Shown one piece after another: positions 3,109-54,877 of a stretch of 64,000 nt of DNA. Origin of the DNA: Vampirovibrionaceae bacterium NZW_1234 (GTDB lineage Bacteria; Cyanobacteriota; Vampirovibrionia; Vampirovibrionales; JAGQHJ01); contig JBGUGD010000031.1 in the NCBI GenBank assembly GCA_041697335.1, forward strand, positions 1 through 64,000. The letters run 5' to 3'. Below the pieces are notes generated by a model. It did no database searches and had not been told where the DNA came from. It saw only the letters and a program-made list of their open reading frames with translations. Each line of letters begins with the position of its first letter. Positions within the stretch are counted from its first letter, which is position 1. Position numbers and translations under genes: made by a program.

Positions 3109-3729
3109 TTACTCCACCGGGGCCATCAGCTGGCGAAGCGCCTGCTCCACCCGCTCTCGGGTAGGCTTGCCAAACCGATGGCGCCGGTTCTTGAACTTCC
3201 AACGCTCGGCCTTGGGAATGGGCTCGTCCAGTTGTTCTAAATCTTTCAGGCCCAGCGTTACCACCTTGCCCTTGTCCTCCACCCACAGATCCATAAAGGT
3301 CAAATCATGCACCTTCACCCCCTGAATCTCCAAAGCCCGATTCGGCCCGCTCCTGTCGGTACGGTCAATCTGATCCCGTGCCGCCAGGGCCTGGTTGGAC
3401 ATCATCTGCAACTTGCCGAACAAACTGGCCCGAGCCGCCTCAAAGCGCTCCAGCAACACCCGGCCCTGCGGCAGGGGATCCATGTAATAGGACGTGGCCA
3501 GCTTCAGCGCATGCTGGAAGAACTGCCGGGCCTCTTTGCCCGAGGCAATGGCATAATGCACCTTCTCGTCAGCAGCCTCATCGAAGCTGACGACGCTATA
3601 AATTTGGACCCCGAACGTATCCCCCGTCTCCCGACGAAAACGCCGGATATCCTCCCGGATGACCTTGTCCTTGTCCGGGCCATAGCGCGGCGGCAATTTC
3701 TGAAGCGCTGTAAACCTGATTGGCACCAT
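3109..3729 (-). CDS. Hypothetical protein with RFT-type leader (MVPIRFTA)
   Basis: Long ORF; GGGGAG RBS 8 nt before the ATG at 3729. Confidence 0.65.
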   Translation of the reverse strand: MVPIRFTALQKLPPRYGPDKDKVIREDIRRFRRETGDTFGVQIYSVVSFDEAADEKVHYAIASGKEARQFFQHALKLATSYYMDPLPQGRVLLERFEAARASLFGKLQMMSNQALAARDQIDRTDRSGPNRALEIQGVKVHDLTFMDLWVEDKGKVVTLGLKDLEQLDEPIPKAERWKFKNRRHRFGKPTRERVEQALRQLMAPVE

Positions 3730-4011
3730 CACCATCACTCCCCGCACCCGTCACATCAAACCACGACGGTCCATCACCTGAGCTATGATAGGGAGTTGGC
3801 ATGGCAAAGTCAATGGTCACTGCCCGGCCCAACACGCTGCCCTTCGAAAAAGCGGTGCCGGCCACGCATCCCGGCGGTTCATATTTCGACATCCGGCCCC
3901 GGACGCCCAGCCCGCAGCCCCCAGCCGACAATCTCCACCAGCCGGTTGTGTCCCCTGCCCGCTTTTGATATGACTAACGTCAAGAAGTCACGCGTTGTGA
4001 GGAGTCGCCCG

Positions 4012-4416
4012 ATGACCATTCGATTCAGCTCGGTCCAAGAGATTCAATTTATCAATGCCAAAGGCAAGCCCCTCAAGGCAACGCCCCGCATCTGTAGCCT
4101 CGCCCAGGAACTGGATAACCAGGGAAGCAAGGCCTCACCCCCCTTCGGCGTATTTACCCTGAGCGACACCTGCGGCGATCCCAACAACACGTACTACCTG
4201 GTCTACAACGGCCCCCAGGACACCGATGGCGACACCTTTCACCAACAGTCCATCGGGATCAACCAAAAATACCTGGCCAAACTCCCCCTGACCGAGGTCA
4301 CCCGAAACGAACTGATCGCCGAAAAGACCGCCCTGTTTCACTCCTACCTGGCCAAGGCCTCCGGCGTCGTCCAGGTCAAAACCCAACGCAACAAACCCTT
4401 CGAAATCCTGGCCTAG
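4012..4416 (+). CDS. Hypothetical protein with RFS-type leader (MTIRFSS)
   Basis: GAGGAG RBS before ATG 4012; the upstream part of ORF 3307 is a shadow of the opposite gene. Confidence 0.7.
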   Translation: MTIRFSSVQEIQFINAKGKPLKATPRICSLAQELDNQGSKASPPFGVFTLSDTCGDPNNTYYLVYNGPQDTDGDTFHQQSIGINQKYLAKLPLTEVTRNELIAEKTALFHSYLAKASGVVQVKTQRNKPFEILA

Positions 4417-4469
4417 ACACCCATTGCACAACACCCTGTCACACAACAACCAAAGCGAGAATCCCCCTT

Positions 4470-5276
4470 ATGAATATCCGAGTCATTGTGGCCGGCGCCA
4501 CCGGATGGACCGGCAGCGAAGTCACCCAAGCCCTCCTCCAGTCCGAGACCTTCGAACTGGTGGGCGCCATTGCCCGAAAGCGTGTCGGCGAGGATATCGG
4601 CACAGTTTTAGGGCTCCCCGAAGCCGGGCTGACAATCCAGTCCAGCCTGTCTGACATCCTCTCCCAAAACACCCTCGCCGATGTCCTCCTGGACTACACG
4701 TTACCGGACACCGTCAAGGCCCGGGTCCTCCAGGCCCTCGACAACAACCTCCACGTCGTTATCGGCACCTCGGGCCTCACCGACACCGACTACCGCGACA
4801 TTGAAGAGCGGGCGCTGGCCCGACAACGCGGCGTCATTGCCGCCGGCAATTTCTCCATCACCGCCGCCCTGGCCAAGCACTTCAGCCTTCTGGCCGCCCA
4901 ATACCTCCCCCACCGGGAAGTCATCGACTATGCCCACGCCGGTAAAATCGACGCCCCCAGCGGCACCACCCGAGAGCTGGCCCACGCCCTGCAACAGGTC
5001 TCCCCCAACCGCCTGGAAATTCCCATCGATGAGACCCACGGCGACAAGGCGGCCCGAGGCGCCACCGTCGGCGAAACCCAGCTCCACTCCGTCCGCCTGC
5101 CCGGCTATGTGTTTTCCTTCGAAACCCTGTTCGGCCTCCCCGACGAACGCCTCAGCATCCGCCACGATGCCGGCTCCGGCGCCCAACCCTACGTCCATGG
5201 GACGCTCCTGGCCCTCAAAGAAGTCGTCCATACCCAAGGCCTCCTCCGCGGCCTGGACAAACTCATGTTCCGCTAA
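4470..5276 (+). CDS. dapB: 4-hydroxy-tetrahydrodipicolinate reductase
   Basis: GATGWTG Rossmann motif, VIGTSG, NFS, HAGKIDAPSGT, HSVRLPG, IRHDA. Confidence 0.93.
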   Translation: MNIRVIVAGATGWTGSEVTQALLQSETFELVGAIARKRVGEDIGTVLGLPEAGLTIQSSLSDILSQNTLADVLLDYTLPDTVKARVLQALDNNLHVVIGTSGLTDTDYRDIEERALARQRGVIAAGNFSITAALAKHFSLLAAQYLPHREVIDYAHAGKIDAPSGTTRELAHALQQVSPNRLEIPIDETHGDKAARGATVGETQLHSVRLPGYVFSFETLFGLPDERLSIRHDAGSGAQPYVHGTLLALKEVVHTQGLLRGLDKLMFR

Positions 5277-5382
5277 AAACCCGCCAAAAGGCTTTCTAAC
5301 GCACATGCCCTCTTCCCGGGAACACCCCAAAAGGCGTCACCAAACAGAAGAGGGCACGTCTATACGAATGCCGCTTTACACC

Positions 5383-5691
5383 CTAGGCAATGCGATCGAA
5401 CAACCCATTTCTGGACAGTTCCATGGCCACCTCACGGGATTGATTGAAATCCCGGGTCGGGTCGTACACAAAAGGAATCCGACGATCCACCAGCTCGCCC
5501 AAGGCCTTCAGCAAGTTGGTCCGGTTGCTGATGTTATAGCCACTGACCATGGTCTTGCCACCTTCCAACGGCTTGGTCATCGTCCCGGAGCTGTGCAGAT
5601 CCCGAAGCGGCTCGAACCGCTTGTCCAGCTTTGCCGCTTCATCCACACCGGGATGCTTGAAATACACATACGATCCAAAATGAATGTTCAT
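5383..5691 (-). CDS. Hypothetical protein with HFG-type leader (MNIHFGS)
   Basis: About 102 aa ORF with GGAG RBS. Confidence 0.65.
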   Translation of the reverse strand: MNIHFGSYVYFKHPGVDEAAKLDKRFEPLRDLHSSGTMTKPLEGGKTMVSGYNISNRTNLLKALGELVDRRIPFVYDPTRDFNQSREVAMELSRNGLFDRIA

Positions 5692-6174
5692 CAATCACAC
5701 TCCACGAAACACATCACGAATAAATAGACTCATGTAGTGAAATCGAATTTGTTTCAAAAATCAACCGTTTGCAGACACTTGTTTTTATAAAGCAGCTCAA
5801 GCTTCAGCCCCGTTCCCACCGATGCAGGTAACCTGGAACACGCATCATTCTAAACAAATCCTTAACCCCAATGTTGCGCTAGCACAAAAATAACATCATT
5901 CGTTTTTATAGCTATATAAACAATCATTGGCTATTTCTATTTCGTGTGTGTATCGGCAATGGGCTGAATGGCAACGGATTCGTTTCGGACCGTTCTCGTC
6001 GTCATACACGGAAATTCCTTCATGTGTGTGGCTATCAATATAGGCGGATCAAAACAATGGCTATCAATCTTTTTTAACGTTCGTTCGCAGGTCCAGGCGT
6101 GCATTATCGCAACTGCCTGCGACACGTTGTCTCGTACAGGTGTTTAGAAACTTATTGCTGGGAGGCTATATTTT

Positions 6175-7554
6175 ATGAGCGACTTGGCAGGCATATTGTC
6201 TGCATTTACACAGCCACGAACAGGACCCGTCAGTCCTGAAAGAGCGCTTTTCCGATCGGTAGCTGAATTTGGCGGCCGAGCCACCGGTCTTCCCTTGGGA
6301 ACACTGTTTGACGTCGGCGCACAAGTCTATGACTCCTACACCGGCACCTCGTTTACCAGCGCACCGCTGCCTGGGGCAACGGGCTCGTCTGGTGCAGCAG
6401 GGGCTTCCGGAGCAACGGGCTCATCGCGCGCAGCGGGTGCTTCCGGAGCCACAGGCTCATCTGGCGCAGCGGGGGCTTCCGGAGCAACGGGCTCATCGGG
6501 CGCAGCAGGTGCTTCCGGAGCCACAGGCTCATCTGGCGCAGCAGGTGCTTCCGGCGCAACAGGTTCATCTGGCGCAGCGGGGGCTTCCGGAGCCACAGGT
6601 TCATCTGGCGCAGCGGGGGCTTCCGGAGCCACAGGAGCATCCGGCGCAGCGGGAGCAACCGGAGCTACAGGAGCATCCGGCGCGGCGAGGACCAACCGAC
6701 CAACATTTCAGGGTGTCCCTGGAGCGCCACCCAATGCCGAAGACTGGACGGGGCAACCTGTCAATGACAGTAACGTCGTTGACTTTGCCAACAAGGCAAA
6801 CACCACGGGTGTAGGCTTTCGAGGCCAGAATATGGGCTCTATCGTCCAACAAGCCGCTGACGCTGTCCGTGCCGGTATTCGAGCCAATGAAGCACTCCTG
6901 AGCGGCAGTGGATCCGGAGGCTCCGCAGGGGGTATCGGCCGCGGCAGAGCCGTCCGATTCCCGATGACATTCTGGGGCTCCGGCCCACAGGGGGCGCAGA
7001 TCAAGGCGGAATTAGAGCGACAAGTCGGCCCCCTGGTCCAACTTTGTAACGCCCTGGCGGATCGCATTGAAGGTACCGGCACCTCCGGCCCCGGAGGCAC
7101 AACCGGCGGCACCGGGGTGACCGGAGCCAGTGGTGCCACCGGCGGAACGGGCGCAGCCAGCAGCAGGCCTTTTGCGGGACTACAACTACGCGATTTGCTA
7201 ACCCAACTCAACAATGCCATGATACGCCCTGGCGGCGCAGCCGACCCCCGAGCCCCCGAATTGGATAACCTGCTGAGGGAAACCCTGGATCGGTTCCGTA
7301 TTCGAACGTCGGGTCAGCGTCCTTCCGCAAACGTCCGGAATCCCATCAACAATAATCAGATCCGGCGTCTATCGGACATCGATCTCATCACCCGACTAGA
7401 CACCCTGAACCAACGTGCCTCTGCTGGACCGTTGGACGAGGCGGCCCAACAACAACGTCAAGAACTTCAGAATGAACTTATCAGACGTATGCGAAGTTCG
7501 GCGGGCTTGCGAGACGCCAGTCCAACACCGCCGCCGCCACCCGTACTGGTTTAG
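6175..7554 (+). CDS. Gly/Ala/Ser/Thr repeat (collagen-like) protein
   Basis: GGGAGG RBS; tandem [12 protein letters not shown] units; helical C-terminal part; poly-Pro end; followed by a hairpin. Confidence 0.8.
6373..6687 (+). repeat. 36-bp coding tandem repeat, about 8.75 copies
   Basis: Encodes [12 protein letters not shown] repeats; 35 triplets with Gly first except one Arg; synonymous variation between copies. Confidence 0.95.
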
Positions 7555-9628: not shown

Positions 9629-9985
9629 ATGAACGTGACCTCCGTCGGGATGAAAACGGCGGCGATGGCTTGCCGTGGGATGAAAGCCCTGGTTCCCCAA
9701 GCCTCCCCCAAGACCGCTTCTGAAGCGCCTCGCTTTGGAGGGTTGGTGCTCAGCCGTCAATACGGCCAGGAAACCTACATCGGGGACTCCATTGTGATGT
9801 CTCCCCTGGAGCGTCTGCGGGATGGCCGTATCCGTTACAGCATCGTCGCTCCCGCAACCGATACCATTACCATTCGCGGTGATATTCACTTCACCCCGGT
9901 CAAAGTCGGCAATACTCGTGCCAAATTCAATTTCGAGGTCCCCGCCGATGTGGACGTCCTGCGGCACGAAGCTCAGGATCCCTAA
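9629..9985 (+). CDS. CsrA/RsmA-like protein with internal duplication and RFG leader
   Basis: After APRFG the sequence reads GLVLSRQYGQETYIGD...IRYSIVAP, then TITIRGDI...KFNFEVPADVDVLRHE, matching the CsrA pattern LxLxR..G....IGD...AP..V.V.R.E. AAAGGA RBS. Confidence 0.7.
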   Translation: MNVTSVGMKTAAMACRGMKALVPQASPKTASEAPRFGGLVLSRQYGQETYIGDSIVMSPLERLRDGRIRYSIVAPATDTITIRGDIHFTPVKVGNTRAKFNFEVPADVDVLRHEAQDP

Positions 9986-16016: not shown

Positions 16017-16316
16017 ATGCGTGTATCTGGACAGGTGTGCTTTGGGGCTGTAATGAAGAAGACCTTCAAGCGGCCGTCGGGCTTGTGGGAGAGTGGGGAT
16101 GAATTCGACAGAATCAAGAAGCAGAAAGCGGCCTTGAAAAAGACCTACAATGGGCCTGATGATGTGGTGCTCCTCAAGACAGAGTCCGAGCTTGAAGACC
16201 AAAAGAAGCTGCCTTGGGCGATTTATGTTCTGACCGGGGACGATGGGGCCAAGTACCGCCAAGCAATTAAGACAGTGAAAGCCCTGTTGGGCACAGCCAC
16301 AGAGGGCAGCCTTTAA
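16017..16316 (+). CDS. Hypothetical protein with CFG-type leader (MRVSGQVCFG)
   Basis: 99 aa ORF with AAGGGAG RBS. Confidence 0.65.
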   Translation: MRVSGQVCFGAVMKKTFKRPSGLWESGDEFDRIKKQKAALKKTYNGPDDVVLLKTESELEDQKKLPWAIYVLTGDDGAKYRQAIKTVKALLGTATEGSL

Positions 16317-18674: not shown

Positions 18675-18684
18675 AGACAACCTC

Positions 18685-19149: not shown

Positions 19150-19210
19150 CACGGTATCCTTCTGGTTGGGCGGGTTCGGGAAGTCTGTTGTATCATCGCG
19201 GGGGCAGGGC

Positions 19211-23824: not shown

Positions 23825-23854
23825 CAGATACACCTCCCCATCACCGCATCTCCA

Positions 23855-24382: not shown

Positions 24383-24503
24383 AGGGACTCCTTCATCCTG
24401 GGGTCTACCACCCCTCCTGACGTCCATGACGCTCTCTCGGATACACGGTGATTTTACACCAACCCTGGCCGCAAATGAAGCCGTTTTCCAGACGCCCTTG
24501 GCC

Positions 24504-24605
24504 CGCGTGAAACACGCGTGAATCGCGCGTGATTTTCGCGTGAATGGCCCAAAACACGCGTCATTCACGCGTAAAACACGCGTGATTTTCGCGTGTTTTA
24601 CGCGT
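24504..24605. repeat. Phased array of nine CGCGT cores with 11-bp period
   Basis: CGCGT starts at 24504, 24515, 24526, 24537, 24557, 24568, 24579, 24590, 24601. Confidence 0.85.
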
Positions 24606-30275: not shown

Positions 30276-30653
30276 ATGCAGATTCGTTTTCAAGGATTTA
30301 CCCGGATTGTTGGGGCTACGGCCGAGGCCGTCAATGAGCGCGTCAGAACCGAGTCCTCACGCCATGCCATCTCTCTGACCAATTCGGCTGGCCCGGTGGG
30401 CGACCGATTCGAGGGTCGGGTTCTTTACGGTAAAGACGCCCGCAACGTCCTTCGATGGTTGAACATTCGCTCTGCAGCCAAGGCCACCAGCGAGGAAGCC
30501 GATAAAGCCGTTGTGGACGGCCTGACCCAAACCTATAAAGGCAACCTTCCCAAAGGGCTTGAGGACCTGGCCAACTTGACCTTTCACTACTGGCGGGTTG
30601 TGGCCCCGAATCGCAAGGTCAGGACCATTGATCTCGACGGGGAAGGAACCTAG
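30276..30653 (+). CDS. Hypothetical protein with RFQG leader (MQIRFQG)
   Basis: GGAGG RBS; 125 aa. Confidence 0.65.
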   Translation: MQIRFQGFTRIVGATAEAVNERVRTESSRHAISLTNSAGPVGDRFEGRVLYGKDARNVLRWLNIRSAAKATSEEADKAVVDGLTQTYKGNLPKGLEDLANLTFHYWRVVAPNRKVRTIDLDGEGT

Positions 30654-30657: not shown

Positions 30658-31008
30658 ATGCGAATTCACGCGCCTGCAGCACTGCCCCTGAGGACCTCCG
30701 TGCGGTTTGGAAATCAATCGCCACCGGGACTGACCGTCGATGAACAGAAGGACGTCGAAGCCAAGGTGACCGCAGCGCTGACGGGAGCCTCCCTTCAGGC
30801 CAATGTATTGGCCAGAGCTCGAAACGTGACCGTGGTGGCCAAGCAAAAAGTGCTTACTGCCGTAAAAAACCTATTGGAGACGTTGGACGGGTTCACGAAA
30901 GACGCAAACGGGACGTTCAAGTACAAGGGCTACCCGGTACTCATCGCACCAGAGCGGACCTATCAAATCCCAACGACCCGGGTCAAGCCCCGCCGCCGTC
31001 CGTCCTAG
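30658..31008 (+). CDS. Hypothetical protein with RFG leader
   Basis: MRIHAPAALPLRTSVRFG; starts just after the preceding stop; GAAGGA RBS. Confidence 0.65.
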   Translation: MRIHAPAALPLRTSVRFGNQSPPGLTVDEQKDVEAKVTAALTGASLQANVLARARNVTVVAKQKVLTAVKNLLETLDGFTKDANGTFKYKGYPVLIAPERTYQIPTTRVKPRRRPS

Positions 31009-31017: not shown

Positions 31018-31389
31018 ATGATCATGCACCCGCTAGCGCCACGGCCAGTATCCACGTTCTCCTACCCAACCCTTCAGCCGGTTCGCCGACACAGTTACGT
31101 GCCCCCGGCACCCCGGTTTGGTCAAGCCCCGGAAAAACCGACATGGGGTCAGCGGGCCTATCGGTCCATTCCGCTGTTGGCCAGTCTCTCGTTCCTGCTG
31201 GGGTCTGGCTATTTATGTCTCAAGGAAACCATGATCCAAAAAGAGTGGGTCTCGTTTCCAACCCTCGCATGGACCGTGGGATCCGCACTCCTGGTGTTTC
31301 GGGAGACACGAGAACTGCTGCGAAACCCTGACAAAAACCCCCCGGATCCCCCACCGACAAATCCCAACACCACGGATGCCAAGGCATGA
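31018..31389 (+). CDS. Small two-TM protein (YrhK-like pattern) with RFG leader
   Basis: ...VPPAPRFG followed by two hydrophobic segments (FLLGS, TVGSALL). Confidence 0.6.
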   Translation: MIMHPLAPRPVSTFSYPTLQPVRRHSYVPPAPRFGQAPEKPTWGQRAYRSIPLLASLSFLLGSGYLCLKETMIQKEWVSFPTLAWTVGSALLVFRETRELLRNPDKNPPDPPPTNPNTTDAKA

Positions 31390-32115: not shown

Positions 32116-32132
32116 CGTGAAAGGATAAGCCC

Positions 32133-33098: not shown

Positions 33099-33101
33099 CC
33101 C

Positions 33102-33841: not shown

Positions 33842-34204
33842 ATGAAACTTCGTTTTGGGACCGATTTGCATTTTGACAACAGCATCACTCCGAAAGAACA
33901 AGCCACGATTCGCCATTTCTTTGCCGATCGGCAATTATTGGCCTCCGACGGCACGGTAACCGATGTGTATCGCTTTGCCGAAGAGCCGGACAGCATTCAT
34001 TTGTCGGTGGAAGCGATGCAGGCCCGGAAACCTTTAAAACGCCGCAAAAACCGTCCTCAGCACCAAACGGTCAAGAAAGCATTGGCACGCCTTCCCCTGG
34101 CCAAGGAAGTGGTTCGTATGGGCGACTTTACCGCCATGCCGTTACCCCAGGCGCTCGCGGATTTAATTGATGAATTGATTCGCATCGGACGAAGCCCATC
34201 CTAA
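33842..34204 (+). CDS. Hypothetical protein with RFG leader (MKLRFG)
   Basis: GGAG RBS before ATG 33842; alternative start at 33809. Confidence 0.6.
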   Translation: MKLRFGTDLHFDNSITPKEQATIRHFFADRQLLASDGTVTDVYRFAEEPDSIHLSVEAMQARKPLKRRKNRPQHQTVKKALARLPLAKEVVRMGDFTAMPLPQALADLIDELIRIGRSPS

Positions 34205-35134: not shown

Positions 35135-36052
35135 ATGAGACTCGCCCCGCCTAGATTTCAAGGCTCCATTGTGGTTCGCACCATGAGCGATCCCCGTCAC
35201 CAGGAAGACTACCTGAAAGCACAAGTCACCCCATTGCCGGGAACAATTATTCCTCCGTATTTACAGTCCCAACAAACGGTTCGGGATCTCTTGAAAACAG
35301 TGACAATGACTCACGTCAAGGGGATTGTCAAGCGTCTGACGCCCGCAAAGCCTGACAAAGCCAATACACCGCAATTGACGATCGGGCATAACCTTAAAAC
35401 CGCAACCATTGACTATGGTGAAAACGTCACCTTGCGAGGCCAGCTCCACCAGGCGCTACTGGAAGTGGGAGCCGATTTTATCGATACGGACGGCGATATT
35501 TTTAAACCCGGCTTTAAAATCCAGTTGCAGGAACAATTTCTCCAAGGGCTGGGCCACCCCTTGGAGCGGGAAATCCTGAAACTTCTCAAAGAAAAAAACC
35601 TCACCCTGGCAACGGCAGAATCGGCCACAGGCGGCCTGGTCAGCTCTCGGCTGACCGACATTCGCGGCAGTTCCTACTTCGTGAAGCACAATATTGTGAC
35701 CTATTGCAACGAAGCCAAAACCAATGCCCTGGGCGTCGATGCAGATTTTCTGGCTAAAGAGGGTCCCTATAATGAGCGCACCGCTGCCGATATGGCCGAA
35801 GGCGTGCGCAAAGCCACCGGTGCCAAGGTTGGTCTGGCCTTTACCGGCCTGGCCGGCTGCAATAAATGGGGCGATGACTTTGCCGGGGTGGTCTTTATCG
35901 GATTGGCCGGATTAAGCGATAAACCCATTGTCAAACGGGTCCAAGTCGATGCCGATTTGCCTCGGACACTGAAAAAACAGCTTTTTAGCGAATACGGGCT
36001 CGTCTTTCTCAAACACTACCTGCAGGGCAATTTGACCTCAGATTCACCTTAA
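35135..36052 (+). CDS. CinA C-terminal/PncC (NMN deamidase-like) domain protein with unknown N-terminal region and RFQG leader
   Basis: TLATAESATGGLVSSRLTDI.GSS, TY.NEAK, MAEGVR, TGLAG; begins MRLAPPRFQG. Confidence 0.82.
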   Translation: MRLAPPRFQGSIVVRTMSDPRHQEDYLKAQVTPLPGTIIPPYLQSQQTVRDLLKTVTMTHVKGIVKRLTPAKPDKANTPQLTIGHNLKTATIDYGENVTLRGQLHQALLEVGADFIDTDGDIFKPGFKIQLQEQFLQGLGHPLEREILKLLKEKNLTLATAESATGGLVSSRLTDIRGSSYFVKHNIVTYCNEAKTNALGVDADFLAKEGPYNERTAADMAEGVRKATGAKVGLAFTGLAGCNKWGDDFAGVVFIGLAGLSDKPIVKRVQVDADLPRTLKKQLFSEYGLVFLKHYLQGNLTSDSP

Positions 36053-38135: not shown

Positions 38136-38672
38136 ATGCAACAGGTTTATGGTTATTCCGCCGTTTCTTCCCTTCAGAAGCCGCTGTTTGGGAGTCGGCA
38201 ACGTCAGCCATCGGATGTCGAGTATTCGTGTATGCTGCTCAAGCCCCCGAGCCCGGGATCCGTGGCTCCAGGAGAGGAGAGCACTTACGACAAGCTCAAA
38301 AATTACCCGATTCCCCCTGGTTGGACACGTCGGACCCATCACTGCACCATTGAATACAACCCTGTAAATGGGCGGTATCCTTCAGGAACAGGTCAAATCA
38401 AGGTTTCAGCCATTCGCAAAACCAATGAGGTCATCTACGCCATTGCCGACCCACCGGATTACATCAAGCAATGGGCCGCAAGAGAAGGCCTTAACCAGCC
38501 ATGGCACATTACCATTGCGACGGCCCCAGGCATTCCTGCGGTCAGAGCCAAGGAAATGACAGCGCAAAATATTGGCGAATATATCGAGCGGTTCGATCCC
38601 CCCCTGTCGATTGATTTCGAAGCGGGTGGGTTTACCTTCGGGGGCGACCTGACGACAGCGAACCCCAAATAA
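38136..38672 (+). CDS. 2H phosphoesterase-like protein with LFG leader
   Basis: Two HxT motifs (HHCTI, WHITIA) about 55 aa apart; AGGAGG RBS; followed by a terminator. Confidence 0.65.
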   Translation: MQQVYGYSAVSSLQKPLFGSRQRQPSDVEYSCMLLKPPSPGSVAPGEESTYDKLKNYPIPPGWTRRTHHCTIEYNPVNGRYPSGTGQIKVSAIRKTNEVIYAIADPPDYIKQWAAREGLNQPWHITIATAPGIPAVRAKEMTAQNIGEYIERFDPPLSIDFEAGGFTFGGDLTTANPK

Positions 38673-38745: not shown

Positions 38746-39072
38746 CTAGGCAATAATATTCAACTGTCCCTTAGCCCTTGCGGCATCTACAGCCTCCTGG
38801 CAGGCATTCACCCGAGCTTGTGCCAGGCCGCGTAATGGATGTCCCTCCAGCTTCCGGGACACCTCGGTCAAGTCTGGGGCATTGGTATTGGTAATCAAAA
38901 CAACCTGATCATTGGGTAACTCTTCCATCATGACGGAAGTAGGATTATCAATATCCAAAACCGCCGGATCCTGGGTCACTTTTGCCAATTCCCGCGGCAA
39001 AGGTTCCAGTAACATCCGCTTGGTATTGTCGTTATGGTTTAAAAGGTGAATGGCTCCAAACCGCATCGTCAA
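38746..39072 (-). CDS. Hypothetical protein with RFG leader (MTMRFG)
   Basis: GGAG RBS; about 107 aa. Confidence 0.65.
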   Translation of the reverse strand: MTMRFGAIHLLNHNDNTKRMLLEPLPRELAKVTQDPAVLDIDNPTSVMMEELPNDQVVLITNTNAPDLTEVSRKLEGHPLRGLAQARVNACQEAVDAARAKGQLNIIA

Positions 39073-42527: not shown

Positions 42528-43547
42528 CTAGCCATCCGAACGCGTCCGCTTGGGTTCCCGAGACGGGTTATTACTGGGTCCAAGCACATTCCAGAACACA
42601 ACGGTTCCCGCCCCATGCCGGTCTCGGCACAACTCCCATGCCTTTCTATCGTAGTTGGCACATGAAGGAAAGGGTGTCGCCATTCGCAGTTCCTGCTCCA
42701 GTCGTTTGGGATGCCTGATAATTTTTGCTCGCCCCGGATCCGCAATATCCATTCCAACCTGAACACCGATAATTTTTGTTTTCGGGTTTTTTAGGCCTGC
42801 CTGGAGCCCTCGGGTTAACACACCACTGGCCGCAGCAGACCAAAGCTCATCAATTGGCCCCACCTGATCCTCGACCTGTTTGATGACTCGGGCTAATACC
42901 GACTCTGCCAGAGAGGATTTTCCTCCCACTTCCAGGTAATGACGACCTGGAGCCGCTGTACTGAAGCGTTTGGCATGAGATTCGAGGACATTCAAGAATC
43001 CATGGGGAACCTGCTTCACCGTAACATGTGGCCCACCAAGGCGAATCGCCTCTAACGTCCTGGGATGAAGCTGCTGGCGCTTGGCGACGAACAAGGTGAC
43101 ATGCTTTCCCGTTAAGCGGGCCATGGCTGCCAGAGCCACCTGAGCCCCTCCCCAGGTGGTCGATGGATAGACCACATGATCGTGCTGGGAGAACAGATGA
43201 ACAAAGAATCGTGACTTCGTGCCTCCCGGCAGGCGATCATCGCGAACCACAAAGACCCCTTCGTGACGCTCCACTCGAGGAGGAGCAAAGAGAATCTCAT
43301 CCAATAGGGCAGCTCGGCCCGGATCCAGTTGGCGCAATCTGGGCAGAACGGCTTTTCTGGGAGCACCCAGATAAACCGACCGAATGATATCGGATAAGGC
43401 CTGTGTCTGTGCTTTTGACAGGGGTGAGAGCGTCGACACCTGATCCGTTAATGCTACCTCCTCAGAAACACCTGCAGAGGCAACGGATTTGGTCTGGCTG
43501 CTAAATCTTGGGGCAGTCCCCAAAAAGGAAACGCGATGAATGGACAT
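42528..43547 (-). CDS. Compact PLP-dependent fold-type II enzyme with RFS leader
   Basis: VVRDD.LPGGTK.R, SAAASGVLTRG, IIGVQVG, YDRKAW, FWNV. Confidence 0.7.
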   Translation of the reverse strand: MSIHRVSFLGTAPRFSSQTKSVASAGVSEEVALTDQVSTLSPLSKAQTQALSDIIRSVYLGAPRKAVLPRLRQLDPGRAALLDEILFAPPRVERHEGVFVVRDDRLPGGTKSRFFVHLFSQHDHVVYPSTTWGGAQVALAAMARLTGKHVTLFVAKRQQLHPRTLEAIRLGGPHVTVKQVPHGFLNVLESHAKRFSTAAPGRHYLEVGGKSSLAESVLARVIKQVEDQVGPIDELWSAAASGVLTRGLQAGLKNPKTKIIGVQVGMDIADPGRAKIIRHPKRLEQELRMATPFPSCANYDRKAWELCRDRHGAGTVVFWNVLGPSNNPSREPKRTRSDG

Positions 43548-43978: not shown

Positions 43979-44791
43979 TTAAAAGAGCCAGAAGCGGCGT
44001 CTTGTTTTGCTCGCGTCGCTTGGCTTGATAAACACTTGCGAGAAGGGGCCTTCTCGGGCCGACTGCACAAAACCTGCCCGGATCAATGCTTGTCCTGCCT
44101 CTGGGTCTCCGCGGTAGGTACCGATAATCACCATACTGCCCGGCTGCAGATTTTGAAAAAGTGCCTGTGTCACCCTGGGAATCGTTTCGGACTTGTCCTT
44201 AAGCAGGTACCAGGCATTTCGGAAGAACACGACGGTACGGGGTGGAAATGTCCCTTGAACGTCTTTGACAAAGTCACCCACCTGAAAATGGACCGCTTGT
44301 TTCAGCTCCGGAGTCACGAGGCATCGGGTACCGGCATCAGCGGCAGTGGGTATAAAAAACCGTGTCAGCGGGGATTTCATCCCGACCTCATGATAACGAT
44401 ATTTCTCGCGCTCGCTCAGGGAAAAGCGGCCTTGCTGCGGCGCTTCAAGCACCGTGTCACTCAAGTCACGGGCTTGGATCGGCATATATTTTTGAGCCGC
44501 ATCCCGAGGCAACCTGTCGAGGAGGGCCATTGCCACTGAAAACGGCTCCGACCCGTCAGAAGCGCCATGACAGATTAGATGAACCGGCTCCTGACCCGGA
44601 AAGTGCTTCTCCAAAAATCGTGGCAACTGCACAAACAACCCCTCGTCTCGAAACAGACTGGACACGTGGATCAGATCAATCCGACGACCATCCGCGTCCT
44701 GGACGACACTGGTCTCACGAGTGCCTTGAAAAGGAATTCTGGAACTTCGAAACAGGCCGGAATCACCGGGTGATGAAATGGCAATTTTCAC
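43979..44791 (-). CDS. CheR-like SAM-dependent methyltransferase (C-terminal domain only)
   Basis: SLFRD, GASDGSEPFSVAM, ARDLS, VHFQVGD, FFRNAWY, LQPG; GTG start adjacent to the ftsH stop. Confidence 0.75.
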   Translation of the reverse strand: MKIAISSPGDSGLFRSSRIPFQGTRETSVVQDADGRRIDLIHVSSLFRDEGLFVQLPRFLEKHFPGQEPVHLICHGASDGSEPFSVAMALLDRLPRDAAQKYMPIQARDLSDTVLEAPQQGRFSLSEREKYRYHEVGMKSPLTRFFIPTAADAGTRCLVTPELKQAVHFQVGDFVKDVQGTFPPRTVVFFRNAWYLLKDKSETIPRVTQALFQNLQPGSMVIIGTYRGDPEAGQALIRAGFVQSAREGPFSQVFIKPSDASKTRRRFWLF

Positions 44792-48898: not shown

Positions 48899-49612
48899 CT
48901 ATGAACCTGGGCTTCGGCGCGCCGCATATTTTTGAAAGCGCGTGTTTAAAAATGCCAACAGCTTGGATTCGCCGTTCAGATAAAAAGACTGACGAATGCC
49001 ATCAAGGGCCGGTTTTTCATCCAGGCCCAGCTTTCGGTAAAATCCTTCGGCACCCAAGGTCGCATTTAAAAAGAAGCCTTGAGCCCCTTTCTTCAGACTT
49101 TCAATCACCCCATGCGTGGTCAACGCTGCACCCACCCCGGTATAGTCCGGCGTTGACGTCATCATCGAATTACATCGGGGATGAATGCGGATGCCATTCA
49201 GGTAGGTTTTACGGAGGCCATCGGTTATGTCCACCAAGGAATGATGCAAAGCCACCACACCCAAAATCACCCGATTAGGCAGCATTAACTTCAACACCTC
49301 GGTATTGGGTGGTGGTGCCTTAATGACGTCCCGCCACCAGTCTCGCCACTTCATATTGGCAGCATAGGTGGGTTCACCCGGCGGTTTCGGATTGTACCAA
49401 TCGTCCACCTCTGCCGCATCCTGAGGCTCAACGGGAACAATCGACACGTCCACCGAATCACCGCGGCGTGTTTTTAGGGGGACCACCCCTTGCCAGAACC
49501 GAGGTGCCCCGGCAATCCCGTTAAGTTGATCCGGCAGGGCCGATTGCCCACCAAAGCGAGCTGATGGTCTCAACAGCATCGGTGTGGCATGTGCCTTGGG
49601 TTTAATGAACAT
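48899..49612 (-). CDS. GNAT-like acetyltransferase with RFG leader
   Basis: YTGVGAAL and AEGFYRKLG GNAT motifs; begins MFIKPKAHATPMLLRPSARFG. Confidence 0.7.
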   Translation of the reverse strand: MFIKPKAHATPMLLRPSARFGGQSALPDQLNGIAGAPRFWQGVVPLKTRRGDSVDVSIVPVEPQDAAEVDDWYNPKPPGEPTYAANMKWRDWWRDVIKAPPPNTEVLKLMLPNRVILGVVALHHSLVDITDGLRKTYLNGIRIHPRCNSMMTSTPDYTGVGAALTTHGVIESLKKGAQGFFLNATLGAEGFYRKLGLDEKPALDGIRQSFYLNGESKLLAFLNTRFQKYAARRSPGS

Positions 49613-49660: not shown

Positions 49661-50725
49661 TTAGGCTGCGGGAGACACCGGTTTATCCGGCCCGGAAGCC
49701 GAGGCATCCGGGACAGAGGGCTGAGCCAACACCGCTTCTGCGGCGGCAATATTGGTACGAATCGCCGCAACCGATTTATCCCAGGCCAGCTTTTCATCGG
49801 CCGACAAGCTTAGTGGGGCAATGGATTCCACCCCATTCTCACCAATGATAGCGGGCACGCCGGCATACAAACCTTTATCCGGGCCAAACTGATCATCCAG
49901 TTGTACGGAGCACGGCAAGGTTTCTCGGGTATTATTAAAAATGGCATTGACCATGCGCGCAATGGCCGCACCAGGCCCATGGGCCGAGGCCGACTTAATG
50001 GCCTGCAACAGCTTGGCAAGGCGCCCACCCCCGTTAATCGTGGCATCGGCAACAACTTTCTGCTCGTCCGCTGTTAATGCTGTTGCAGCAGGTTGTCCAT
50101 TGACCGTGGTCATGCTGAACATCGGGATCATATTGTCGCCATGCTCACCCAATACCCATGCCTTAACGGACTGCAAGGGCAGATTCTTTTGGGATGCAAT
50201 GGCTTCCTGCATCCGAGCCGAATCCAGAATACCTCCCATTCCCATCACCCGATTTGCAGGAAAACCGGTCAGCTTTTGCCCCATGAAACTCATCACATCC
50301 AGGGGGTTTGAGACCATAATCACCTTGGCCTTGGGAGCCCGTGTCTTGATGTTGTCACAAATGGTGCCCAGAATCTTGGCACCCATCGCTAAAAAGTCAC
50401 TGCGGCTTTCTCCCGGCTTGCGGGCCCGTCCAGCGGTAACCACCACGATATCGGCATTATCAATGACCGAATACTGATCACTGCCATAGACCTTGGTATG
50501 GGATCCATTCGCCGCCGCAGCCTGGGTTAAATCCAACCCTTTGCCTTCCGCCACGCCCGGTTGAATATCGAACAGGGCAATTTCATCACAGGTCTTATTA
50601 TGAACCAGCGATGAGGCCGCCGCACTACCGACATTTCCAGCGCCAATAATAGCGACTTTACGGGGTTTTGACTGTTCCGTCGAGTTTGTCCCAAAGCGAA
50701 GTAACTGCAGTGCCTTCATTTGCAT
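49661..50725 (-). CDS. mdh: Malate dehydrogenase (LDH-like) with RFG leader
   Basis: KVAIIGAGNVG, GKGLDL, TAG.ARKPG.SR, SNPLD, LDSAR, GEHGD; 21-aa extension MQMKALQLLRFG... Confidence 0.88.
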   Translation of the reverse strand: MQMKALQLLRFGTNSTEQSKPRKVAIIGAGNVGSAAASSLVHNKTCDEIALFDIQPGVAEGKGLDLTQAAAANGSHTKVYGSDQYSVIDNADIVVVTAGRARKPGESRSDFLAMGAKILGTICDNIKTRAPKAKVIMVSNPLDVMSFMGQKLTGFPANRVMGMGGILDSARMQEAIASQKNLPLQSVKAWVLGEHGDNMIPMFSMTTVNGQPAATALTADEQKVVADATINGGGRLAKLLQAIKSASAHGPGAAIARMVNAIFNNTRETLPCSVQLDDQFGPDKGLYAGVPAIIGENGVESIAPLSLSADEKLAWDKSVAAIRTNIAAAEAVLAQPSVPDASASGPDKPVSPAA

Positions 50726-51011: not shown

Positions 51012-51566
51012 ATGAGCATTACCCTCAACTCTGGCGTGCGCTTTGGCGCACAATTCGATCAGTCCAAGCCCGCAAAAACGGAATTTGACGTGTTTGGCAT
51101 GCCCGAAAACAACTACGAAAACAAGACCAACAGTAAAATCGAACTCGTCGATATGCTGTCCGGCGCCCCGGTTGACTCGTTACTGAACGTCAAAGACCCT
51201 GAGACCAAACAACCGTTGATTACAGCACAAGACGTTTTCAACTGGACCAAATATGACCATATGGTCAATAAAAGAGACTGTCCGGCCTATACCCGCGTCA
51301 AAGTTAATCCGCTCATCGCATTGGCCGCTGGACTTGCTCATGGCGCCGACTTTGGTCGTTGTGGCTGGAGAGCCCTGGACTTAGGGCCTCTGAAGCAGGA
51401 GTTTCCACGAGTCTTTAATGCCGTTGCGACTCGCGTCGGCAAAAAGATTGAAGAACTGAAAAGCCTGAACGCGGCTACAGCAGGGTTATACCCCGTTATC
51501 GACTTTATTGCCAAGAACACCGACAAGTACTACATGGACGGTGATAAAGCCGTTTTAATGGACTAG
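51012..51566 (+). CDS. Hypothetical protein with RFG leader (MSITLNSGVRFG)
   Basis: AAAGGA RBS; 184 aa; followed by a terminator. Confidence 0.75.
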   Translation: MSITLNSGVRFGAQFDQSKPAKTEFDVFGMPENNYENKTNSKIELVDMLSGAPVDSLLNVKDPETKQPLITAQDVFNWTKYDHMVNKRDCPAYTRVKVNPLIALAAGLAHGADFGRCGWRALDLGPLKQEFPRVFNAVATRVGKKIEELKSLNAATAGLYPVIDFIAKNTDKYYMDGDKAVLMD

Positions 51567-51621: not shown

Positions 51622-51664
51622 CGGTTTTTTAAACGGGTTATAGAGTTTTCCAGAGATTCGATCA

Positions 51665-54600
51665 TTAAGCCCCTTCGACTTCCCCATCGACGGGAAGGCC
51701 ATGTGCTGACAGCGCCGACTTGGGAGCAAGGATGGCTGAAATGGAGGGTTTTGATAAATATTTACGAGCAACCTCCTGCACCTGTTGCGGTGTCACAGAT
51801 TCCAGGGCAGCTGCCAGTTCCAGGTTGGACAGGTGTTTGCCGCTTCGATGTGCAACCAGATGATTGCTCACATCTGCCGATTTCTGGGTGTCTGCCAGAA
51901 TATTGCTCTTCATCAGCAAACGCACCCGCTTCATCTCTTCAGCGCTGGGAAGTGTGGTCATCAATTTATCCACTTCCGCCTGGAAGAGTTGCCGAACCAA
52001 CGTGATGTTATCCGGATCGGTGCCGATGTAAAACTTGAAGGTGCCCCCTTCTTCGTTGGCTTCATGCTTCGTATAGACTTGATAACACAAGCCCTTCTCG
52101 CCTTCCCGAAAGGTCTGGAACAGGCGTGAACTCATCCCGGCATTTAAGATGCCATTCAGCATGGCCATGGGCACTCGGTCCTCGTGGGCTTTGGAAGGGG
52201 CAATCCAGGCGCGCATAATTTCGGCCTGTTTAATGTCTTCCCGACTTTTCGTGACGACTTTACTGGCTGAAATTGTCGCGGGCTGAACCGCTGGAATCAT
52301 CGGAGGCTCATCCTGAAGCGGTGCGAGTATTTTGGCCATCTGAGATTTAACCTGGTCCGCCTTAACCTTGCCCACAACACCAATGGTGATATTCCCTTTG
52401 CGAAACAGCTGCTGAAAGGCGCGTCGCAAATCATCGGTCGTTATCTGATCCTGCAAGGCAATGGCCCGGCCCGTCGTCGCTCCGTAAGGATGCTCTTTGG
52501 GATAAATGGCTTCATGCAAGAGATCGGCAACCACTCGCTGAGGTTTTTTATCGACATCTGACTGATAATCTTGGGCTTCCTGTTTGCGCACAAAATCCAG
52601 GTCGGCTTGTGTAAACGCAGGCCCCGAGAGGAGTTTTCTTAAAACTCGGAACATGACTTGCTGAGGGGCTTTTTCCGAAAGGCCTTCGATGTGGATTTTG
52701 GTCAGATCGGGTGTGGTCACGATATCCATATCAAGCCCTTCTGCTGCCAAAGCATCTTGCACGGCTTCAGCCGGAAAATCCGGTGTTCCCCGTTCAATCA
52801 TCTTGGCCAGCAGATCGGTTTCACCGAGTTTCGAATCGGCTCGATTACCGCCCTTGATACCTAGGGTGATGGCTGTTTTCAGAGACGTTGGCCGTTCCTG
52901 GACAATCAACTCGGCCCCGCCGGGAAGAATAAAAGATTGGTCCGAAGCCCTTAACTGACCGGAAAATCGCAGCTTCCCAGAGAACTTAGGGGCTTCTGGC
53001 TTGGGCGTAGCATTTTTCTTGAGCTTCTTGGCGTTAAGACCGTAATCGGCAGGCACAAGCGACACGGTCCGGCTTGCGCCGTCGGTTAGATACTTTCTGG
53101 CAACCGCCTGAATATCTTGCGAAGTAATGCTGTCAAGATACTTTAGCGAGTTTCCTAAGGACGACTTCAACGATCCTCCCCGTATGGTCGAGGCCAAGGT
53201 ATAAATCACCTCGTCCTGGGTCTCGGAATGATCGGCAAAATCACTCTTCAGCATCATTTTGGCCTTCTTCAGCTCTTTATCGCTCACGCCATGATCGGCA
53301 ATCTGAGCAAATGCATCCCGAATCTGGGCCTTGATTGTTTCCAGGTGCTCCGGCTGACAGGAGGACACCAGGTAGAACAAAGAACGTTCCTTCATTTCGT
53401 ATAAACCCAGATTGATGGCATTGGCTATCTGCTGTTTTTCTACCAGAGACTGATAAAGCCGGGAACTTTCGTCCCCTCCCAGAATGTTGGCCAGCAAATC
53501 CAGGGCAAGCAATGTTTTGCGGCTCGATGCCCCACCCGCGCCTGGAACCTGGAATCCCTGGGCCAGTGTGGCCATTTTTACCTGATCCCGCACCAGGCGG
53601 TTTGGCTGAATGCCTTGGGTCGACAAGGGCTTGGTGTAGGCCCTGGGTCTTTGTGAAGCCAGATTTGCCGGGTAGGTGCGGCCATGATCCTTGGGCGGGA
53701 AAGGTTTGTTATACTCCTCTGCCACAGTATGGAGAACTTCATTCATATCGAAGTCCCCAACCACAATGACGGCGCGATTTTGTGGGGCGTAGTGTTTGGC
53801 ATAATAGGCCAGAATTTCTTCCCGTGACAAATCACGAACCTTGAACCGGGTCCGCAACTCGGTTTCCGTCAGGGGTGTACCTAGGGGATTAAAGGGTGGG
53901 GCGCTCAGCAAATCCCGTGGCGTTAGCCCTCGTTGCTTCAGAAGCGCCTTCAGTTTTTTCGCCTTTTTGGTTTCATCCTCTGTAAACGGCTCACCCGAAA
54001 CACTGTGTGTTGGCAAACGCTCCGAGGACACTGCCAGGGCTTCCAAAACCTTACGCCAGGTTTGATGCTCCTTGGAGGCTGACTCCAGTGCAAAATTGGC
54101 ACTGGCTTTGGGGCCTGATGCCGGATCCAGGATCACCCGCAAATCATCGCCAATGTTTTTGGACGGCCCCAAAATGGGTCGACGGTAGGGATGATTGGCA
54201 AATACGCTTTCAAACAGGCGGTTGAACATCTGACTGTTTTTGCTGTTCTTGGAACGCTTAATTTCTTCCACAACGGTAAAGCGCTCTTTTAGAAGCTCTT
54301 CCGGAGGCAGCAACATATTCTGCACCTTCTCGGCTTCAATTCTGATGGCCTCGTTTAAGCCTTCCTTCGGCGTGTTGTAAATGTAATAAAACGTCCCATC
54401 GAAGCCCGTCCAAGCATTGACGCCAGCGCCCAAGTCCTCCAGCAACCGATCCGATTCTCCGGGCTTGAGGTTTGGCGTGCCTTTAAAAATCAGATGTTCC
54501 AGAAAGTGCGAGACGCCGTTGTTTTTTCGGGTCTCGTTGGCCGCGCCGGTTTTAATTAAAACACCGTAGGAAACCAAAGGAACGTCTTTCCGTTGGATGC

Positions 54601-54877
54601 CGTAAAATTCCATGCCATTGGAAAACCGGCGACGCTCAATCTTGCCGAATACCGGATCTTCAATGGGAGGCAACGTTTTCCAGGTTAATTTTGGATCCTG
54701 GCCAAACCGGACTGTGGCAGACAATGCCGTTGAATGCAAGTCCGACCATGGGGAGAAAGCTGTTGCAGAACCCGAAGCGGAAGATGGCTTATGGCCCCCG
54801 TCCGACTTTGGCAACCTTGATTTTAAACGAGTGTTACTTTTTCCAGCCTGAACACCTGAAACAAACATATCAGTCAT
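51665..54877 (-). CDS. M16 family Zn peptidase, fused catalytic and non-catalytic halves
   Basis: GVSHFLEHLIFKGT (HxxEH), NAWT, SSRLYQ; second half has SSRLFQ.FRE.EKGLCY but no HxxEH. Confidence 0.9.
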   Translation of the reverse strand: MTDMFVSGVQAGKSNTRLKSRLPKSDGGHKPSSASGSATAFSPWSDLHSTALSATVRFGQDPKLTWKTLPPIEDPVFGKIERRRFSNGMEFYGIQRKDVPLVSYGVLIKTGAANETRKNNGVSHFLEHLIFKGTPNLKPGESDRLLEDLGAGVNAWTGFDGTFYYIYNTPKEGLNEAIRIEAEKVQNMLLPPEELLKERFTVVEEIKRSKNSKNSQMFNRLFESVFANHPYRRPILGPSKNIGDDLRVILDPASGPKASANFALESASKEHQTWRKVLEALAVSSERLPTHSVSGEPFTEDETKKAKKLKALLKQRGLTPRDLLSAPPFNPLGTPLTETELRTRFKVRDLSREEILAYYAKHYAPQNRAVIVVGDFDMNEVLHTVAEEYNKPFPPKDHGRTYPANLASQRPRAYTKPLSTQGIQPNRLVRDQVKMATLAQGFQVPGAGGASSRKTLLALDLLANILGGDESSRLYQSLVEKQQIANAINLGLYEMKERSLFYLVSSCQPEHLETIKAQIRDAFAQIADHGVSDKELKKAKMMLKSDFADHSETQDEVIYTLASTIRGGSLKSSLGNSLKYLDSITSQDIQAVARKYLTDGASRTVSLVPADYGLNAKKLKKNATPKPEAPKFSGKLRFSGQLRASDQSFILPGGAELIVQERPTSLKTAITLGIKGGNRADSKLGETDLLAKMIERGTPDFPAEAVQDALAAEGLDMDIVTTPDLTKIHIEGLSEKAPQQVMFRVLRKLLSGPAFTQADLDFVRKQEAQDYQSDVDKKPQRVVADLLHEAIYPKEHPYGATTGRAIALQDQITTDDLRRAFQQLFRKGNITIGVVGKVKADQVKSQMAKILAPLQDEPPMIPAVQPATISASKVVTKSREDIKQAEIMRAWIAPSKAHEDRVPMAMLNGILNAGMSSRLFQTFREGEKGLCYQVYTKHEANEEGGTFKFYIGTDPDNITLVRQLFQAEVDKLMTTLPSAEEMKRVRLLMKSNILADTQKSADVSNHLVAHRSGKHLSNLELAAALESVTPQQVQEVARKYLSKPSISAILAPKSALSAHGLPVDGEVEGA

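Follow-up and report, generated by a model that had tools for sequence, protein, structure and literature searches.

A recurrent N-terminal leader ending in the tripeptide Arg-Phe-Gly (RFG) is encoded many times over in the first 64 kb of contig C25 (the window) of Vampirovibrionaceae bacterium NZW_1234, an uncultured relative of cyanobacteria whose assembly (G000) comprises 3.70 Mb in 41 contigs. Sequence comparison indicates that this leader is translated, under selection and sharply bounded at the motif, that about 150 unrelated proteins carry it and that it is common to relatives of the bacterium. It looks like an undescribed address or processing tag. An earlier reading of the window from its letters alone (the sequence-only reading) had listed 12 open reading frames (ORFs) with a strict RFG near the N-terminus and nine with variants. 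When the window ORFs were re-read, all 12 strict sites were confirmed, with xxRFG at residues 4 to 57 and with seven genes on the plus and five on the minus strand, and the nine variant sites read as listed (Table 1). Third bases vary at the strict sites, Arg being encoded by CGC, CGG or CGT and Gly by GGA, GGC, GGT or GGG.

To describe the whole genome we used 3032 greedy, non-overlapping ORFs of at least 100 amino acids, each begun at the earliest ATG, GTG or TTG that follows a stop codon; the set is uncurated, and some of its members are spurious. Within their first 50 residues these ORFs contain RFG 164 times (1.08 per 1000 positions), as against ~0.21 per 1000 past residue 100. It is the most over-represented N-terminal tripeptide of all (172 vs 37.5 expected from its internal frequency, z 25.6 against composition), followed by the words PRF, LRF, VRF, RFS and RFQ; the N-terminal excess over internal background, a comparison proposed in the sequence-only reading, is thus borne out. 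Within the first 70 residues RFG is found in 185 ORFs, where chance would give ~35, and in the MoaA-like, MqnA-like and FliW-like proteins it clearly belongs to the fold. Our main tagged set consists of the 163 ORFs matching [LPVITSAM]RFG, and the tag is present on about 1 protein in 20 (~5% of the proteome). Leader-like internal RFG sites are rare: there are 12, several of them actually N-terminal in over-extended ORFs. Tagged genes also lie next to each other more often than expected (27 adjacent pairs vs 8.6 ± 2.7 in 2000 permutations), and the densest cluster is the window itself.

Such a pattern would be an artefact if the true starts lay downstream and RFG came from a DNA or RNA element, or if a few paralogous families accounted for the count. 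We give this almost no credence. The nucleotide word CGN-TTT-GG gives counts of 126 (frame 0), 14 (frame 1) and 39 (frame 2) in the first 150 nucleotides (nt), and CGN-TTC-GG is enriched in frame 0 too; since the enrichment is frame-specific, the signal is a peptide and not a DNA or RNA word. This frame specificity, together with the synonymous variation of the Arg and Gly codons, rules out a DNA or RNA element and leaves over a mild preference for TTT at the motif Phe (78% vs 69% for other N-terminal Phe codons, P about 0.007), which is what the artefact would have in its favour besides the fact that the starts rest on sequence and not on experiment. Inflation by paralogs was likewise ruled out, as the 163 proteins fall into 149 families by single-linkage BLAST; the claim of the earlier reading that one leader is shared by unrelated proteins therefore stands.

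The starts themselves favour a motif inside the translated protein, as had been proposed. Shine-Dalgarno (SD)-like sites precede 200 of 524 candidate starts upstream of the motif (38%) and 113 of 528 downstream of it (21%), the reference rates being 51% at unambiguous starts and 16% at internal control positions. At least one SD-bearing start lies upstream of the motif in 130 of the 163 genes, and the one nearest to the Arg is at a median distance of 16 codons (quartiles 8 and 29). Nine of the 163 genes have no alternative start at all in the 50 codons after the motif. What is more, the motif is conserved at the protein level among homologues of 46-74% identity, as described below.

The leader is disordered, has a median length of ~16 residues (range 1 to ~60) and ends in [Ser/Ala/Pro]-[Leu/Pro/Val/Ile]-Arg-Phe-Gly-[Ser/Ala/Gln/Asn]. 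In the logo of the 185 ORFs, position -2 is Ser in 25% (3.9-fold), position -1 is Leu, Pro, Val or Ile in 69%, and RFG is followed by Ser, Ala, Gln, Asn or Thr. Upstream of the motif Ser plus Thr make up 18-25% and Pro 8-16%, and Arg (6.4%) exceeds Lys (3.6%). The boundary is clearest in the acidic residues of the 163 ORFs: Asp plus Glu amount to 2.8-5.3% in every bin from -30 to -1 and to 9.8-12% right after the Gly, the background being 11.1%. No such step was seen at the control tripeptides RLG, RYG, KFG and R[LIV]G (9-10% upstream) or at RF not followed by Gly. It does recur at 81 sites of the form [LPVI]xFG[SAQNTG] that lack the Arg (5.0% vs 9.4%), and because these non-Arg cases share the composition step the family is wider than strict RFG. 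SF[GK] is enriched 1.35-fold in the genome, and SFG, AFG and LFG variants are present in orthologs. Comparison of the relatives indicates that Phe-Gly is the conserved core and that the Arg is replaceable.

The leader has no hydrophobic core and is neither a Sec nor a lipoprotein signal, in agreement with the earlier reading. A hydrophobic 15-mer is found upstream of the motif in one of the 163 tagged proteins and within 70 residues after it in 16, compared with a hydrophobic segment in the first 100 residues of 685 of 2869 other ORFs (24%). Polarity is higher in the 40 residues past the motif than at residues 31-70 of other ORFs. None of the Pfam or NCBIfam models overlaps a leader and none that matched is a sorting-signal model; the family matches begin after the leader, so that recognisable domains start soon after the motif, again as the earlier reading had noted. 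A search for a C-terminal signature in the tagged proteins found none. The likeness to organellar transit peptides noticed by that reading also holds in composition (Asp/Glu at 3-5%, Arg over Lys, abundant Ser, Thr and Pro).

Ortholog series allow us to follow the motif through divergence. Homologues of the tagged malate dehydrogenase (MDH) with 46-74% identity carry LLRFGT, VLRFGT, PLQFGS, PLRFGS, KPLFGN plus LVKFGG, or APRFGQ plus LTRFGG, in leaders that are otherwise unalignable; the motif thus occurs twice in some of them, and a homologue with 69% identity is labelled 'Cyanobacteria bacterium'. Ordinary MDHs begin right at the Rossmann strand. In the AlphaFold2 model of the window MDH, the per-residue confidence (pLDDT) is below 50 at residues 1-16 and strand 1 runs from residue 21, and in this model the leader is outside the MDH fold. 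A search for loci related to the MDH locus gave no match. When orthologs of the tagged M16 peptidase are aligned, VRFGQ, PLFQGT, VMFGY, MLFGA, LLFGA and VRFSS fall together at a single position, 8-10 residues ahead of a conserved block, and a third series, the 237-residue family at 48899..49612, retains ARFGG, AVFGS or VRFGG. All three series keep hydrophobic-x-Phe-Gly while the rest of the leader drifts, which shows that the motif is under selection.

The distribution of the tag was examined in samples of 84-200 kb from each of 16 genomes of the same order, a mapping that the sequence-only reading had suggested. N-terminal RFG is enriched in G022 (10 vs 2.5 expected), G004 (7 vs 1.8), G001 (5 vs 0.6) and G020 (5 vs 1.2), and less clearly in G028 and G024. 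No enrichment was detected in the samples of G005, G006, G008, G012, G013, G016, G017, G018 and G023. If every x-Phe-Gly that follows an acid-free, polar 14-mer is counted, which is a looser measure, G012 scores too, while family f2, when pooled, does not (7 vs 5.0). Of the three families of the order that were sampled, two include relatives with the tag. Elsewhere in the class, three further families were sampled at 100 kb each: G055 and G078 are not enriched and G046 is weakly so (6 vs 1.8). The public sequencing runs containing the stretch are labelled as hot-spring or microbial-mat metagenomes, the best match among them perhaps being the source sample itself, and among those listed there was no RNA run.

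We tentatively prefer to see in these sequence features a lineage-specific export or sorting leader, possibly cleaved at Phe-Gly. A cytoplasmic receptor would read Phe-Gly at the end of the leader and would pass the protein to a translocation or sorting route distinct from Sec and Tat; the motif could double as a cut point for removal of the leader. The transport role, the cleavage and the route are what we infer, from the exclusion of Asp and Glu that ends at Phe-Gly, the disorder of the leader, the few Sec signals on tagged proteins, a Cys content in the range of exported proteins, the tendency of tagged genes to cluster and the many lineage-specific proteins among the cargo. If the leader does route or process proteins, some undescribed receptor, peptidase or translocon has to be at work, and the tag would provide a list of ~150 of its substrates.

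The cargo itself is mixed. In the window it comprises a CsrA-like protein, citrate synthase, MDH, an FtsH-like protease, the M16 peptidase, a YunG-domain protein and six proteins without a family. We scanned 45 of the 152 tagged candidates on other contigs, not a random choice, and a Pfam family was matched at E ≤1e-5 by 20 of them, leaving 25 without a family. The matches include isocitrate dehydrogenase, acyl-CoA dehydrogenase, enoyl-CoA hydratase, guanylate kinase, NadD-like, NUDIX and nucleotidyl transferase proteins, a GH13/CBM48 enzyme, an S-adenosylmethionine (SAM)-dependent methyltransferase, PrkA, SpoVR, a ClpB-like ATPase, a trypsin-like protease and a TPR protein; for two of the 20, MqnA-like and FliW, RFG lies within or abuts the fold and they are probably background. 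Many tagged enzymes have an untagged twin, namely MDH (a leaderless paralog on contig C2, 42% identity), citrate synthase (a leaderless paralog elsewhere in the genome, 55% identity), isocitrate dehydrogenase, M16, FtsH, a PRPP-synthase-like protein and guanylate kinase.

Cysteine content is the sole result that points to a function outside the cytoplasm. Cys makes up 0.48% of tagged proteins, 0.40-0.50% of ORFs with a Sec-like hydrophobic N-terminus and 0.96-0.99% of ORFs without a hydrophobic segment; the tagged proteins differ from the cytoplasmic-like ones (P about 1e-11) and not significantly from the Sec-like ones. The Lys content is 6.4% in tagged proteins, against 4.9%. The sequence-only reading had taken the leader for a common export, sorting or cleavage signal, possibly marking proteins delivered into a host or prey cell. 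The Cys content sides with the export or sorting part of this claim, whereas the cytoplasmic-type cargo and the N-terminus of the FtsH-like proteins weigh against it.

Several observations in fact weigh against our preferred export or sorting reading. When 34 tagged proteins are each paired with their best untagged paralog, Cys is 0.58% on both sides; because these pairs do not differ, the Cys signal is due mainly to lineage-specific proteins, whose low Cys content may have other causes. The recognisable cargo is largely cytoplasmic-type, using NAD, ATP, CoA or SAM, and the FtsH-like proteins are tagged on an N-terminus expected to be cytoplasmic. With ordinary NAD, ATP and CoA enzymes and FtsH-like membrane proteases among the cargo, a plain secreted-effector picture is insufficient. 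A signal of the Tat-like or lipoprotein-like kind can be made out by eye behind the tag in at least two tagged proteins, and one tagged protein has a separate SRRQFL stretch there. A quarter of the leaders have eight residues or fewer, which is short for a translocation signal. Lastly, when tested candidates were compared with the tag for co-occurrence, no receptor, peptidase or translocon was found.

The candidate machinery closest at hand is a flagellar-type export core. Two full FlhA-type genes are present in each of 31 genomes of the order, and in G000 a compact second core with rod-like genes, FliF, FliH, FlhA and FliI occupies C32:8000-21000, two FlhB being encoded in the genome. This core could belong to a second flagellum or be a repurposed secretion device. 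The leader might then be a flagellar-type type III export signal, probably for the second core, with Phe-Gly acting like the gate recognition motif that docks on FlhB. We regard this version, which overlaps with the export or sorting reading, as unlikely. The leader is disordered, acid-poor and rich in Ser, Thr and Pro, as type III signals are. Parts of PMC8983047 describe early flagellar subunits with a Phe-containing motif ~36 residues in (FlgD 36-FLTLL-40). On the other hand, RFG is absent from all 13 rod, hook or flagellin N-termini of G000 and the two FlhA genes are present in tag-poor relatives as well, both of which also count against export more generally. None of the 27 ORFs on the contig of the C32 cluster is tagged, and the leader, with its median of 16 codons and lower quartile of eight, is often shorter than the 19-30-residue spacing given as required in the same parts of PMC8983047.

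The leader could instead be a pro-peptide that never takes part in transport: tagged proteins would be synthesised in an inactive or immature form, and a dedicated cytoplasmic peptidase, for example an M16 paralog or a retropepsin-like enzyme, would cut at or next to Phe-Gly and so activate paralogous enzymes at some stage of the life cycle. This we consider doubtful, if somewhat less so than the type III signal. The composition boundary falls exactly at the motif, a leader of variable length, down to 1-8 residues, would be better tolerated by a protease than by a translocon, and the domain begins ~10 residues past the motif in MDH and a few tens past it in isocitrate dehydrogenase. The genome, moreover, holds five M16 paralogs, including one that is tagged and whose orthologs keep the tag. 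However, none of the peptidases tested co-varies with the tag. Tag-rich G022 lacks an ortholog of the retropepsin-like aspartic protease of the window, whereas tag-poor G008 and G016 have one, and we rejected this protease as the leader peptidase. The tagged M16 was considered as a marker, but its orthologs (in G020, G012, G022, G028 and G003) carry the tag themselves; it behaves as cargo, and nothing points to it as the processing enzyme. The residue that follows the Gly is variable, a pro-peptide would account neither for the low Cys content nor for the scarce Sec signals, and the double motif of some orthologs is easier to reconcile with docking than with one cut.

Docking without any membrane being crossed is a further alternative. 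The motif would be a short linear element on a flexible tail, binding to an intracellular hub; this might be a scaffold, a domain at the pole or in the membrane, or the adaptor of an AAA+ protease for which the leader would serve as a degradation handle. AAA+ proteases take hold of flexible N-terminal tails, the cargo consists mainly of cytoplasmic-type enzymes, regulators and membrane proteases tagged on their cytoplasmic side, the motif can be doubled within one leader, and the untagged twins suit conditional localisation or turnover of one copy. Still, we think it improbable to about the same degree as the type III signal: docking leaves unexplained the exclusion of Asp and Glu over 30 upstream residues, as well as the exported-like Cys content and the depletion of Sec signals, and no hub was found, the FG-repeat proteins tested not co-occurring with the tag.

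These FG-rich, low-complexity proteins are of some interest in themselves. They are encoded at C34:114271-115452, C34:142341-143126 and C12:35402-36121 and resemble nucleoporin FG domains, with for example ~25 PQGFGG(A) repeats followed by a C-terminal hydrophobic tail anchor, or 28 FG in 261 residues. Their distribution in the order is patchy and lends no support to an FG-binding phase or hub for the tag, for they occur in tag-poor G008, G005 and G017 and were not found in tag-rich G020, G022 and G028.

Finally, by analogy with plastids, one may imagine transit-peptide-like routing in free-living, non-photosynthetic relatives of cyanobacteria, in which a second housekeeping set, AAA proteases and M16 would cross a membrane into an unseen compartment or into a neighbour or prey cell in the mat. 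We hold this to be quite improbable, more so than the type III, pro-peptide and docking alternatives. If it were true, the tag plus a following Tat-like or lipoprotein-like signal would be bipartite, as in thylakoid-lumen targeting, and the logic of the plastid transit peptide, which is acid-free and hydroxylated and has a Phe-Gly motif, would be older than the origin of plastids or run parallel to it. Chloroplasts possess a Ycf2-FtsHi-NAD-MDH import motor and an M16 peptidase, and a parallel was considered because the window clusters tagged FtsH-like, MDH and M16 genes. It was rejected: the HEFGH motif of the FtsH-like protein is intact, its PDB matches are to generic AAA/FtsH proteins, and the neighbourhood is not conserved at the MDH ortholog of G022. 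Families adjoining tagged genes gave no candidate either; among several hundred families with at least three members the best was pilin-like (5 of 7 nearby, P = 0.002 uncorrected), which is not significant. A weak lead at the DNA level is the word CAATTT (GCAATTT), found upstream of 28 of 137 tagged genes and 149 of 1857 others (P = 1e-5, 517 words tested), which may be a promoter element shared by a subset of the tagged genes.

Table 1. Tagged genes and variant sites in the window (nt, nucleotide positions of the motif)
Feature	Position	Strand	Motif and remarks
CsrA-like protein, 118 aa	9629..9985	+	APRFG at residues 33-37, nt 9731-9739; Pfam CsrA at 78-116
Citrate synthase paralog, 428 aa	28942..30228	+	ASRFG, nt 29026-29034; domain from ~residue 53
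116-aa protein, no family	30658..31008	+	SVRFG, nt 30703-30711
123-aa protein, no family	31018..31389	+	APRFG, nt 31114-31122; hydrophobic stretch further along
120-aa protein, no family	33842..34204	+	MKLRFG, nt 33851-33859
108-aa protein, no family	38746..39072	-	(L)TMRFG, nt 39055-39063
YunG-domain protein, 283 aa	39306..40157	+	ALRFG, nt 39378-39386
FtsH-like AAA/M41 protease, 986 aa	44792..47752	-	PVRFG at residue 40, nt 47627-47635
237-aa protein, no family	48899..49612	-	SARFGG, nt 49550-49558; homologues with AVFGS or TVRFGG
Malate dehydrogenase (MDH) paralog, 354 aa	49661..50725	-	LLRFG, nt 50690-50698; Rossmann fold from ~residue 22
184-aa protein, no family	51012..51566	+	GVRFG, nt 51039-51047; tagged paralog on C30
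Four-domain M16 peptidase, 1070 aa	51665..54877	-	TVRFG at residue 57, nt 54701-54709
CinA/PncC-domain protein, plausible member	35135..36052	+	Variant PPRFQG at residues 5-10; FQG occurs in M16 ortholog
Pyridoxal-phosphate (PLP)-dependent enzyme (PALP), plausible member	42528..43547	-	Variant APRFSS; RFS occurs in M16 ortholog
CheR-like methyltransferase, possible member	43979..44791	-	Variant RIPFQG
178-aa protein, plausible member	38136..38672	+	Variant KPLFGS; LFG occurs in MDH and M16 orthologs
125-aa protein, possible member	30276..30653	+	Variant MQIRFQG
99-aa protein, possible member	16017..16316	+	Variant QVCFGA; CFG occurs in a relative's homologue
Three doubtful variants	3109..5694		PIRFTA (3729, -), TIRFSS (4012, +), NIHFG (5691, -); overlapping ORFs on both strands

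The FtsH-like protease has a 270-residue N-terminal cytoplasmic extension and two predicted transmembrane segments. For the three variants at the left end of the window the genes themselves are uncertain, because unannotated long ORFs overlap there on both strands (3307-4416 on the plus strand with 3109-3747 on the minus strand, and 4681-5727 on the plus strand with 4701-5330 and 5383-5694 on the minus strand); the ORFs of 3109-5727 gave a family match on neither strand. Nearby, at 6175-7554 on the plus strand, lies a gene for a protein with collagen-triple-helix repeats (Pfam Collagen, E 1.4e-12). Untagged neighbours of tagged genes include a SelO protein adenylyltransferase (10353-11837) and a 603-residue patatin-like phospholipase (40096-41907). 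A kynurenine-pathway cluster, for NAD synthesis or tryptophan breakdown, occupies 17181-24730 on the minus strand and encodes a 3-hydroxyanthranilate dioxygenase, an ACMSD-like amidohydrolase, a formamidase-like cyclase, a kynureninase, an FAD monooxygenase and an aldehyde dehydrogenase, none of them tagged. It is followed at 24984-27179 by a topoisomerase I gene (topA) without a leader, a second topA being present at C9:136053-137750 (~40% identity). Phospholipid synthesis is represented at 31489-33773 on the plus strand, amid the cluster of tagged genes, by a CDP-alcohol phosphatidyltransferase, CdsA and a PlsC-type acyltransferase; further copies of CdsA and PlsC are found elsewhere in the genome.

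The catalogued proteome-wide N-terminal signals of bacteria are those of Sec, Tat, lipoproteins and prepilins and the motif-less type III signal. Judged by its sequence, the RFG leader fits none of the Sec, Tat, lipoprotein, prepilin and double-glycine classes. Like Sec, Tat and lipoprotein signals it is N-terminal, positively charged, proteome-wide and bounded at its C-terminal end, but it has no h-region, which a Sec signal has in its first 30-40 residues, and where a Tat signal has twin arginines (S/T-R-R-x-F-L-K) it has a single Arg before Phe-Gly and polar residues; unlike in lipoproteins, whose lipobox ends in Cys, Cys is not among the frequent residues after the Gly. The leaders of type IV prepilins and of L27 in Firmicutes, the latter removed by Prp, are short and basic, end at a Gly- or Phe-containing site and are processed by a dedicated peptidase. 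Prepilins, however, have Gly-Phe followed by a hydrophobic helix with Glu5, whereas here Phe-Gly is followed by polar sequence, and the L27/Prp leader is found on a handful of proteins, not on some 5% of a proteome. The double-glycine leader is acidic and helical and ends in Gly-Gly, Gly-Ala or Gly-Ser, in contrast to the nearly acid-free RFG leader with its Phe-Gly end.

A literature search, mostly of open-access text and without supplements, found nothing on such an N-terminal RFG motif or on a transit peptide in Melainabacteria, and the titles and abstracts on Vampirovibrio and Vampirovibrionia yielded nothing relevant to the leader. A strict, conserved tripeptide that ends an acid-free, non-hydrophobic leader on ~5% of a proteome comes from a poorly studied lineage, in which gene callers and annotators will often misplace the starts of tagged genes or miss their common feature.

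Type III signals resemble the leader in being disordered, in lacking a hydrophobic core and in using a short Phe-containing docking motif, and G000 has an export apparatus of this kind; we know of no strict RFG consensus among type III substrates. As described in parts of PMC8983047, the signal of early flagellar subunits is bipartite, an N-terminal hydrophobic signal being combined with a gate recognition motif that docks on FlhB at least 19-30 residues away. The leader differs in not keeping this spacing and in being absent from the flagellar subunits of G000.

Closest in form, by analogy, are the plastid transit peptides and mitochondrial presequences, which are processed by M16 peptidases. 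Like them the RFG leader is N-terminal and unstructured, favours basic residues over acidic ones, is rich in Ser, Thr and Pro and contains a short Phe-Gly motif; organellar leaders are present on hundreds of unrelated proteins and the RFG leader on ~150, second copies of housekeeping enzymes among them. Parts of PMC8645953 describe chloroplast transit peptides and mitochondrial presequences as unstructured, with basic residues prevailing over acidic ones and many Pro and hydroxylated residues, and the semi-conserved FGLK motif of chloroplast transit peptides as contacting TOC34. The motif found here differs from FGLK in being basic-Phe-Gly-polar rather than Phe-Gly-Leu-Lys, in being far more uniform and in marking the end of the leader. 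The RFG leaders differ from organellar ones, too, in being encoded by a bacterial genome without a known internal compartment, where neither TOC/TIC nor TOM/TIM machinery is expected. The likeness arises in the sister lineage of the group to which the ancestor of plastids belonged, and it makes the origin of such leaders a testable question.

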